DNA of 24,715 nucleotides. Source: Caldilineales bacterium. Lineage in GTDB: Bacteria > Chloroflexota > Anaerolineae > Caldilineales > Caldilineaceae. Position numbers and translations under genes: made by a program. The stretch is from assembly GCA_038251215.1 (NCBI GenBank), contig JBBSBO010000001.1, positions 1 to 24,715 on the forward strand. Reading direction: 5' to 3'. The notes under the pieces are model-generated. The model ran no database searches and had not been told where the DNA came from. It saw only the letters and a program-made list of their open reading frames with translations. The stretch's first letter is position 1. The number at the start of each line of letters is the position of its first letter. This document shows, piece after piece, positions 7,802 to 10,994 of the stretch.

Positions 7802-8022
7802 CTGTGCATAATGTTTGAACAGGAAATTTCAACACCCTGTCCAAGCAAGCTTAGCGCAACAACTGTGCGCATCCGCTAAACCGATCAAAAACATGCGGCA
7901 ATCAACGTAGGATTGACGACCAGCAGTTGCGGCAGAGCGCACACATGCGCCGGCAGCCTAATGAATATGGGCTGATTGGAAGCTCGGTACGACACAGCTT
8001 CTTCAGAAAGGATCCATTGACC

Positions 8023-8754
8023 ATGGCACTTCACGCTCGCGAGTTTCAATCGGCTTCTCCCTCACCTTTCCTTTCACAAAACAACCGCAGCGGCGCCATT
8101 GGCCTGAACGGCGTGGCGCAGGCGCTGACCGCTCTGCGCGCGGACGATCCCGCCTTCAACAAGGTGATCAGCGTTAAGAACAGCGAGAAAGGCGCCATTA
8201 TCGCCACTACCGAAGACCTCGCCAGCAAAATGTACTTGCTGATGAGCGGCAAGGTCAACATGGTTTGCACCAACAACGAGGGGCGACGCTTGGTCATTGC
8301 CACTCTCGAACCCGGCGCCATCTTTGGCGAAGGCGCGCTGGATAATTCGGGCGACCCCAACGTCTTTGTCGAGGCCGCCGAAAAGGCCGCCCTGTGGGTC
8401 ATCCCCGCCGGCGAAGCGCGCAACATGACGATGCAATATCCCATCCTGGGCTGGGGGATGCTACAAACCTACGGCGAGCGCCTGTTGCAGGTGGAAAACA
8501 GCCTGGAGGACGTCGCGTACAAGAAGTTGCCCGAGCGCCTGGCGATGTTGCTGCTCGACCTGGGCAACAGCGAGAACGGCCTGATCAAGGGCGTCAGCCA
8601 CCAAGCGCTAGCTGACCACCTGGGCACCTATCGCGAGACCGTCAGCGCCATCCTGCGCGACTTCAAACGCCAGCAGCTAGTCGAACTCGGCTACCGGCGC
8701 ATCACCCTGCTGGACGTCGAATCGCTCAAGGACATTGCGGGCATCTGGGACTAA
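8023..8754 (+). CDS. Crp/Fnr-family transcriptional regulator
   Basis: cNMP-like barrel MYLLMSGKVNM...LEPGAIFGEGAL and C-terminal HTH VSHQALADHLGTYRETVSAIL. GAAAGGA upstream of ATG 8023. Confidence 0.9.
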   Translation: MALHAREFQSASPSPFLSQNNRSGAIGLNGVAQALTALRADDPAFNKVISVKNSEKGAIIATTEDLASKMYLLMSGKVNMVCTNNEGRRLVIATLEPGAIFGEGALDNSGDPNVFVEAAEKAALWVIPAGEARNMTMQYPILGWGMLQTYGERLLQVENSLEDVAYKKLPERLAMLLLDLGNSENGLIKGVSHQALADHLGTYRETVSAILRDFKRQQLVELGYRRITLLDVESLKDIAGIWD

Positions 8755-8782
8755 TCGCTCGCTCGGGCAGACAGGCAGCAAA

Positions 8783-8830
8783 AGATGGGAGTGGTGAGAT
8801 TGGGGCAGGTTCATCTCGCCGCTCCCGTCT
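8783..8830 (+). other. 18-bp RNA hairpin 3' of the Crp/Fnr gene
   Basis: AGATGGGAGTGGTGAGAT, 12-nt loop, ATCTCGCCGCTCCCGTCT. Fully paired on the + strand with 3 G-U pairs; no adjacent U-tract. Confidence 0.6.
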
Positions 8831-8958
8831 ATGCAAAAGGACTTTTCTCGCACTTTGCTTGGCCGTGGAACCACCACGCGAGCCGCTGCGTTGCACATAT
8901 TGCATACGACAACCTGCGCGCAGATCTGGCGGCTCAGCATTTCTAATTTGATTCCTAG

Positions 8959-8987
8959 TTGACGCCAACGCCAAGCGTTGCTATAAT
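8959..8987 (+). promoter_or_regulatory. Near-consensus sigma70 promoter upstream of rho
   Basis: TTGACG (8959-8964), 17 bp spacer, TATAAT (8982-8987) with extended -10 TG at 8979-8980. Confidence 0.8.
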
Positions 8988-9722
8988 GGGTTGAATCGTC
9001 AGAGACCTCAGTCCATGCCTGCTACCCACAGCGCGTCTGTATCGTTATGGTTATCCGCTCAATGCCGTGCGCTTTTCGGCCAACCCGCCGGACGGCGCAA
9101 ACCTACGCAGATGGGCCTGGACGATGATAGGGTCAAGGATTGGGCCAACTAATCAGGGTAGACAGCCTGCCGCGACACAGCCGTGGCCTGTCGAATGGGC
9201 GACGGAAGTATAGTTCGTCGAGTATGCCAACGTTTTTCCTGCCGATTGCCGGCGCCCCGCTTGTTCCATCAACTGCATGCCGTTTGGCAGCGATGACGCT
9301 TGCCGCTGTCAAACCTAACTAGTCAAATCTAACTAACCCGACCTTCCTGTGTCTTCCGCCGGTCTCGGCCAACGAACGCAGCGCAGGCGCCTCCAACAGC
9401 CCGCACCCGTTGACAACAATGCATCGACAACAAGACATTGCAGGCTCCACTTCACACACGTGAAATTGTCCAAACTTTGTTTGGACCTTGCGTGTATTCC
9501 ACGGCACATGGTCAGCGATTCGCCCTTTGTCTAGACTGAACAGAAGCGCAACCCATCTTTTAGCCATGTGACTTCAACATCTATCTTCAACCATCTAGCT
9601 TCATACCTAGCCATAATTGAAGACCTATTTTTATTGCATAGCGTTTGCTGTCCCAGCATTCAAGGTGTAAGCCCGCATTCATTTCCTCATATGGGAAGCG
9701 ATATCGCGAAGGAAGAAAAGAA

Positions 9723-10994
9723 ATGACAGACCAACAGTTCGGCACGATGACAATCTCACAGATGGATGCTCTGAACCTGGATGAGCTGCGCGAGATTGCC
9801 CGCTCTATGGGCATCACCGGCTACACGCGCCTGAAAAAATACGACCTGATGATGCGCCTGCTGCGCGCCAGCGCCGAAAACCAAGGCTATATCTTCGGCG
9901 GCGGCACGCTCGAAATCGTGCAAGACGGCATCGGCTTTCTGCGCAGCGAATATCTGCTCCCCGGCGATGAAGATGTCTATGTCAGCCAAAGCCAGATTCG
10001 CCGCTTCGGCTTGCGCACCGGCGACTTTGTCGTAGGACAAGTGCGCCCGCCGAAGGAAACCGAAAAGTACCACGGCCTGCTCAAGGTCGAAGCCGTCAAC
10101 AGCCTCGACCCCGAAGAAGCCAAGCGCCGGCCCATCTTTGAAAAGCTCACCCCCATTTTTCCCAACCAGCTGATCCAACTGGAAACGCGCGCCAACATCA
10201 TCTCCACGCGCATGATCGACCTGCTCGCCCCCATCGGGCGTGGCCAGCGCGGCCTCATCGTCAGCCCGCCCAAAGCCGGCAAAACGACCATCCTCAAGCG
10301 CATTGCCAACGGCATCACCGCCAACTACCAGGACATGCACCTGATGGTCGTGCTCATCGGCGAGCGCCCCGAAGAGGTGACGGACATGGACCGCTCGGTC
10401 GACGCCGAGGTGGTGAGCAGCACCTTCGACGAGCCGGTGCAGAACCACGTGCGCGTCGCCGAGATGGCGCTCGAGCGCGCCAAGCGCCTGGTCGAGAGCG
10501 AGAAGGATGTGGTCATCCTGCTCGACAGCATCACCCGCCTGTCGCGCGCCTACAACCTGACGGTCCCCCCTTCCGGGCGCACGCTCTCCGGCGGCATCGA
10601 CCCGGCGGCGCTCTACCCGCCCAAACGCTTCTTCGGCGCCGCGCGCAAGATCGAAGAAGGCGGCAGCCTCACCATCATCGCCACCACGCTGGTCGACACG
10701 GGCAGCCGCATGGACGACGTCATCTACGAGGAGTTCAAGGGCACGGGCAACATGGAGCTGCACCTCAACCGCAAGCTCTCGGAGCGCCGCATCTTCCCCG
10801 CCTTCGACATTGAGCGCAGCGGCACGCGCGCCGAAGAGAAGCTGCTGGACGCCGAAACCCTGGCGAAGGTCTACACCTTGCGCCGCATGATCGACGCCAT
10901 GGGCGGCGGCAGCGAAGCCCTGCTGCCCATCATCGAGCGCCTGAGCCGCACACGCGACAACCGCGAGTTCCTGGAGACGCTGACCAAGCGCTAG
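9723..10994 (+). CDS. rho: Transcription termination factor Rho
   Basis: Rho_[25 protein letters not shown]-binding GIGFLRS and [14 protein letters not shown], Walker [32 protein letters not shown]. Purine-rich RBS before ATG 9723. Confidence 0.97.

Follow-up and report, generated by a model that had tools for sequence, protein, structure and literature searches.

The window analyzed here is a stretch of 24,715 nt from a Caldilineales bacterium (Chloroflexota, Caldilineaceae). Its forward strand encodes at positions 9723..10994 the transcription termination factor Rho (423 aa), which is canonical and retains the N-terminal RNA-binding domain (Pfam matches: Rho_N, 1.8e-10; Rho_RNA_bind, 2.4e-31; the ATPase domain, ATP-synt_ab). 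Its identity to the full-length Caldilineaceae orthologues listed is 81-96%, with a single outlier at 73%. The genome also encodes a second Rho paralogue of 371 aa (contig C29:1943-3058), 45% identical to the window Rho over residues 80-420; it has no Rho_N domain, matches Rho_RNA_bind only below the threshold, and its gene starts 10 nt after an M20 peptidase gene, with no long leader. Similar paralogues (42-49% identity) are present in most Caldilineaceae genomes searched.

The upstream neighbor of rho is a gene for a Crp/Fnr-family regulator on the same strand (7927-8754, identified by domain search), and the gap of 968 nt between the two genes ranks third by length among the 1359 crudely called intergenic gaps of the whole assembly. 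For comparison, 40 Caldilineaceae genomes were searched and rho loci from 32 of them analyzed (30 and two same-genus loci added); the genomes of one family are related, and hence are not independent samples. In at least 23 of the 32 loci rho is preceded by a Crp/Fnr gene in the same orientation, and thus the long gap is a stable trait of the family; this arrangement is absent in other Chloroflexota. Upstream of the -35 box of the promoter described below, the sequence has no evident palindrome of the Crp type. Downstream of the Crp/Fnr gene, an alignment from the Rfam search contains a hairpin with an imperfect stem of 18 bp (8783..8830, forward strand), where the preceding transcription unit probably ends; it bounds the rho feature on the upstream side. 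According to the alignment, three same-genus relatives have a GC-rich hairpin at the same place, and in two of these a T-rich run comes after it. In the window the hairpin has no U-tract, so that transcription of the Crp gene may here continue into the rho promoter region.

A consensus scan identified upstream of rho a near-consensus sigma-70 promoter with an extended -10 element (TTGACG-17-TGcTATAAT, 8959..8987, forward strand), scoring 11/12. It is composed of TTGACG at 8959-8964, a 17-nt spacer ending with TGC, and TATAAT at 8982-8987, exactly where the first-pass annotation had placed a near-perfect promoter, and it is the sole sigma-70-like site within positions 8500-10000 on either strand. 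The pattern TTGACN-14-TGN-TATAAT is found at only two sites in the whole 3.8 Mb assembly, the promoter upstream of rho being one of them. The other site lies on the minus strand of contig C462 near position 2780, ~86 nt upstream of a 149-aa ORF. Judged by its sequence, the promoter upstream of rho is one of the strongest-looking in this Caldilineaceae genome. The predicted transcription start is at ~8994. At other strong promoter-like sites of the genome the next ORF is mostly found within a few hundred nucleotides, usually less than 250 nt away.

The first-pass annotation had suggested aligning the rho upstream regions, and their comparison has shown that the promoter is retained across the family and that the leader sequence diverges, its composition being kept. 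In particular, a single strong promoter of the type TTGACG-17-TGnTATAAT (or a close variant with a score of at least 10/12 in a simple scan) is located 359-1138 nt upstream of the rho start in 30 of the 32 Caldilineaceae loci, and one of the two remaining loci is a truncated contig. The -35, TGn and -10 elements are nearly invariant across the family loci, and invariant in the full alignment of the genus, where the early transcript is almost as constant. Only two blocks of the gap survive in Blastn comparison with three same-genus genomes, 8939-9073 (the promoter and the first ~80 nt) and 9648-9717, and the alignment identifies the promoter with the first ~45 nt of the predicted transcript as the best-conserved part of the gap within the genus. 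These ~45 nt are also recognizable in four further loci from three other genera; beyond them, no sequence conservation of the leader between genera was found. In general, leaders of different genera cannot be aligned past the promoter, and tblastx of the window leader against the family leaders matched the promoter only.

Of 68 rho loci from other Chloroflexota, 34 have an upstream promoter-like site with a score of 10/12 or more, at distances of 80-797 nt (median 257 nt), which suggests a longish rho leader for about half of these loci. The predicted rho leaders of Caldilineaceae are thus the long extreme among the Chloroflexota compared.

In the window, the predicted untranslated leader comprises ~729 nt (8994..9722, forward strand), with no conserved ORF, Rfam family or terminator. 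The first-pass annotation gave the rho start as 9723 and saw no convincing ORF between the promoter and rho, and our comparison agrees with it. None of the 10 ORFs of the gap, taken from both strands, has a Pfam match at E-values up to 0.1, no peptide conservation was seen in the tblastx comparison of the window leader with the family leaders, and the window leader, as expected of an untranslated one, contains no SD-preceded ORF. In total, 18 of 30 family leaders (the window and 17 others) have no SD-preceded ORF of at least five codons. The 45-codon uORF at 9015..9152 (forward strand), previously listed as having no RBS, is present and indeed not preceded by an SD sequence; it has no Pfam match and is not conserved, and we judge it not to be a gene. 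Its ATG at +22 is kept in four genus sequences, as would be expected if a translated leader peptide, encoded by this uORF or another one, governed attenuation in the manner of mgtL or toiL. However, in the closest relative (L002) the frame is only 15 codons long, and in other genera the ATG is absent and there is no such ORF; most family leaders have no SD-preceded ORF, and no conserved ORF with an RBS was found in them. We consider regulation by a leader peptide highly improbable.

Searches for RNA genes in the region were negative. The comparison with Rfam proposed in the first-pass annotation was run for positions 8500-10000 at E-values up to 10, yielding four weak matches, all far below the gathering scores and none with an E-value below 1 (the best one being 1.1); three of the four are eukaryotic miRNA or lncRNA families, and none lies inside the leader (8994-9722). 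No tRNA or tmRNA genes were found in the region. The 6S RNA gene was also considered as a candidate for the gap and ruled out, since it is located elsewhere in the genome (contig C24:4058-4245, minus strand; RF00013, 50.5 bits, over the cut-off). Likewise, the gap is not a repeat or mobile element, as an nhmmer search found each of its three genus-conserved blocks only once in the genome.

The predicted folding of the leader is no more stable than that of shuffled sequence. The z-scores of folding energy relative to dinucleotide shuffles are -0.50 for the whole leader, +0.12 for 8994-9320 and -0.74 for 9321-9740; hence the hairpins named in the first-pass annotation, which do exist in the sequence, occur at the chance level, carry no statistical weight and are not evidence of structure. 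RNAalifold found no conserved pairs in nine sequences from five genera. In the four genus sequences it predicts some stems with six both-side changes; the support for these local stems is weak, given that three of the sequences are almost identical. A riboswitch or another structured cis-regulatory RNA was rejected, given no Rfam match in the leader and no cross-genus base pairs. One perfect 8-bp hairpin, GTCCAAAC-TTT-GTTTGGAC (9468..9486, forward strand), was read directly from the sequence and is present in the MFE folds; it has no U-tract, and its stem is kept, with changes, in three genus relatives (L002, L003, L009) according to the alignment. Its role may be in pausing or processing. The last part of the leader is the genus-conserved block 9648..9722 (forward strand; 85-87% identity to three same-genus genomes) immediately before the start codon, with the SD sequence GAAGGAAG at 9708-9715, which is unpaired in the MFE structures.

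These data bear on the alternative that the strong promoter drives an independent small or medium non-coding RNA ending well before rho, with rho itself transcribed from a weaker promoter near 9600-9650. A weak promoter-like sequence, TTGAAG-16-TAGCGT, can indeed be read near 9617-9644, the block 9648-9722 could then be a short true 5' UTR, and the conservation of the first ~80 nt after the strong promoter within the genus would be that of the RNA. Yet an RNA of this kind should have a 3' end of its own and conserved sequence or structure, and neither was found: no intrinsic terminator is predicted in the gap of the window or in the same-genus leaders, the scan of 30 family leaders for a hairpin followed by a T-run revealed none at a consistent position, no Rfam family matches, 6S RNA is encoded elsewhere, folding is at the shuffle level with no cross-genus structure, and sequence conservation between genera does not extend past ~45 nt. 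Moreover, each family locus has just one strong promoter. The weak proximal candidates in the window (near 9409 and 9617) are unlikely promoters of rho, as they are not conserved even within the genus, whose alignment contains no conserved proximal rho promoter. The independent sRNA, which the first-pass annotation had offered as its second reading, finds no support here, and we regard it as quite unlikely.

The 5' quarter of the leader is compositionally balanced, and the remaining ~520 nt are C-rich and G-poor, forming an uninterrupted C>G bubble, a rut-like candidate region for Rho loading (9191..9711, forward strand). Bubbles were defined as by Nadiras et al. (PMC6144790), the descriptors computed being the bubble and YC ones. 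The bubble 9191-9711 comprises 444 window positions with an area of 4039, both values exceeding the 99th percentile of 95,218 bubbles of the genome. The 78-nt windows with a C/G ratio of at least 2, to which 1.3% of random genome windows belong, span approximately 9294-9473 and 9516-9659, and chains of the (YC)N9-13 x6 type are present in the leader. The leader thus has the rut-like composition in full, combining little structure and YC dimers at intervals with a C>G bubble that exceeds the ~80 nt called for. In the first-pass annotation, 21 C versus 6 G were counted by hand in positions 9551-9620, which is exact, and the tandem repeats noted there are real. Two of them were confirmed by TRF: a 14-nt repeat GTCAAACCTAACTA in two copies within the C-rich region (9308..9335, forward strand) and a 14-nt repeat CTTCAACCATCTAG in 2.4 copies in the most G-poor stretch (9572..9603, forward strand). 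The third one, a ~14-nt repeat GACAACAATGCAT / GACAACAAGACAT (9412..9438, forward strand), was found by the repeat search. The alignment shows that the repeat 9412-9438 is deleted in three genus relatives, and the repeat 9572-9603 is not conserved in genus relatives. A second large sense C>G bubble is located within the early-middle part of the rho coding region (10021-10398; 301 positions, area 3759, above the 99th percentile).

The composition is also kept across the family. The GC skew is negative, that is, C exceeds G in the sense strand, in all 30 family leaders studied (mean -0.11), compared to the mean of -0.008 (sd 0.11) in 132 other long upstream regions of the window genome; the skew of the window leader taken by itself (-0.13) is unexceptional, being reached by 17% of these regions. 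The adjacent rho coding region has no such C>G skew in most genera. The fraction of 78-nt windows with C at least twice as frequent as G is 10.4% in the family leaders, and the opposite bias is seen in 0.5%. Each of the 30 leaders has a sense C>G bubble of more than 100 positions (median 228), and no antisense bubble in them has 175 positions or more. In 20 of 30 leaders the sense bubble exceeds the 95th percentile of the window genome, a level reached by no antisense bubble. By these comparisons, the family leaders drift in sequence yet keep their C>G composition and length class. On templates from E. coli and Salmonella, Rho-dependent termination in vitro was elicited by every C>G bubble exceeding 78 bp, although C>G bubbles are common and insufficient as predictors of termination (PMC6144790).

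In E. coli, Salmonella, B. subtilis and Caulobacter, Rho is known to control its own gene by attenuation in the rho leader (PMC11599450; PMC12350095). Given this known attenuation and the C>G bubble, we read the gap as the rho promoter followed by an autoregulatory leader; with moderate confidence, 8959-8987 is the promoter of rho, and the ~729-nt untranslated leader acts as an attenuator on which Rho loads to control its own synthesis. We infer that transcription starts near 8994 and runs on into rho, with Rho terminating part of it in the leader. The transcript would start near 8994, with its first ~729 nt being the untranslated leader, whose segment 9191-9711, free of ribosomes and not notably structured, would be the substrate for loading of the Rho hexamer. 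When Rho is plentiful, most transcripts would be terminated before rho or just inside it, and a shortage of Rho would let RNA polymerase proceed into the gene. With a very strong promoter in front of a long attenuator, the negative feedback would be tight and sensitive. The first-pass annotation preferred the same reading, in which a long leader has C-rich stretches resembling rut sites and Rho probably regulates itself; the long leader is supported by the comparison, namely by the family-conserved promoter, no conserved proximal promoter, a leader with no ORFs, terminators or significant structure, and C>G skew in 30 of 30 leaders, and attenuation in it would fit the composition.

One more feature of the leader may be regulatory. 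Comparison of the family leaders revealed a CCUCAG-like direct repeat at the very beginning of the transcript (9005..9031, forward strand), consisting of ACCTCAG at 9005-9011 and ACCCACAG at 9024-9031. Two copies of the motif ~19-23 nt apart are found in at least five genera. Of the 30 family leaders, 22 have the core CCTC within +4..+40, a 5.5-fold enrichment over the remainder of the leaders; the core is found at only 8 of the 64 other strong promoter-like sites in the genome and in 5 of 34 rho leaders from outside the family. Hence the CCUCAG-like motif, at about +10 to +40, is specific to the Caldilineaceae rho leaders. RNAalifold found no conserved base pairing around it (nine sequences, five genera). 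Pairing of the 5' CCUC with the SD sequence of rho is unsupported, as the latter is AAGGAAG, and the only contact in the MFE structure is a 4-bp one (GUCA/UGAC). The pattern CCTCA-N14-22-CCNCAG was considered as a regulon motif and rejected, as its 67 sites genome-wide are not above the rough chance estimate (~120). The motif may be a site of protein binding, processing or antitermination.

The motif is one argument for another explanation, in which the leader is real and co-transcribed with rho, but is controlled mainly by a factor other than Rho. A protein or small RNA acting at the CCUCAG-like motif or at the block 9648-9722 could influence mRNA stability, translation or antitermination. 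Consistent with that, sequence conservation in the leader is confined to its first ~45 nt and its final ~75 nt, the CCTC enrichment at the 5' end is restricted to the rho leaders of the family, and a factor binding as a dimer would fit two copies spaced by ~20 nt. At the same time, such control leaves unexplained the C>G bubble kept in 30 of 30 leaders despite the sequence drift; the motif is not enriched genome-wide, and no structure sequestering the SD sequence is predicted. Control by such a factor could also coexist with attenuation by Rho instead of replacing it. We consider it rather unlikely as the main mechanism.

More speculatively, both could be combined, the CCUCAG-like repeat being a dedicated control site placed before the Rho-loading tract, so that the rho level depends on a gated switch, with antitermination and termination as its two states, and not on simple titration. 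The repeat would then be an RNA element similar to nut or boxA, or a DNA operator, which decides whether RNA polymerase becomes resistant to Rho before entering a Rho-loading tract of 0.4-1.1 kb. The N-terminally truncated Rho paralogue of the family may be a part of such a switch. We mention this possibility as a doubtful one.

To our knowledge, B. subtilis and a few Proteobacteria are the only bacteria for which autoregulation of Rho through its leader has been demonstrated, and we know of no experimental work on termination in Chloroflexota. Our results suggest that the comparative signature of Rho autoregulation extends to a Chloroflexota family and, less clearly, to other Chloroflexota (half of the loci). 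This signature includes a near-consensus promoter far upstream of the gene, a leader that drifts in sequence but remains in the same length class, and an untranslated, uninterrupted C>G bias. A leader length of 0.36-1.1 kb, combined with one of the strongest promoters of the genome, suggests a high-gain design of the feedback. The Caldilineaceae rho leader may also serve as a clean natural template for studying what a non-model Rho recognizes, and, for annotation, neither a gene nor an sRNA is to be expected in the gap between the Crp/Fnr gene and rho.

The rho leaders of enterobacteria are ~250 nt long, and the window leader is roughly three times that length. In Salmonella, the sRNA SraL counteracts attenuation in the rho leader. 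The organization of the locus in E. coli and Salmonella resembles that predicted for the window, where a sigma-70 promoter is separated from rho by nothing but an untranslated C-rich leader. The regulatory logic there is negative feedback by Rho-dependent premature termination (PMC11599450), and the same logic would be expected in the window. The likeness is one of sequence features. The leaders have no sequence similarity and come from different phyla, and the window has the family-specific CCUCAG-like motif at the 5' end. As in the attenuators studied by Nadiras et al. 2018 (PMC6144790), the bubble of the window is far longer than 78 nt and is accompanied by (YC)N9-13 chains, and, as in their model, the leader has few G-rich motifs and weak structure. 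This model was trained on Rho from E. coli and Salmonella, and its transfer to the Rho of Chloroflexota is an assumption.

In B. subtilis, rho is co-transcribed with an upstream non-coding element (segment S1436) and attenuated at Rho-dependent terminators in the leader (PMC11599450), and candidate Rut sites have been described both in the 5' UTR and in the early coding region (PMC12350095). The bubble in the coding region of the window rho, described above, recalls the latter. The B. subtilis rho transcript of ~1.9 kb includes rpmE, and thus its leader is much shorter than that of the window, where rpmE does not follow rho. The B. subtilis rho leader is reportedly the subject of Ingham et al. 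1999. Compared with B. subtilis, the Caldilineaceae promoter stands out by its near-consensus extended -10 element, conserved over the whole family. Overall, the control logic proposed here is an already known one, appearing in Chloroflexota in an unusually long form, with the leader length, the family-wide near-consensus promoter and the family-specific 5' motif as its notable features.
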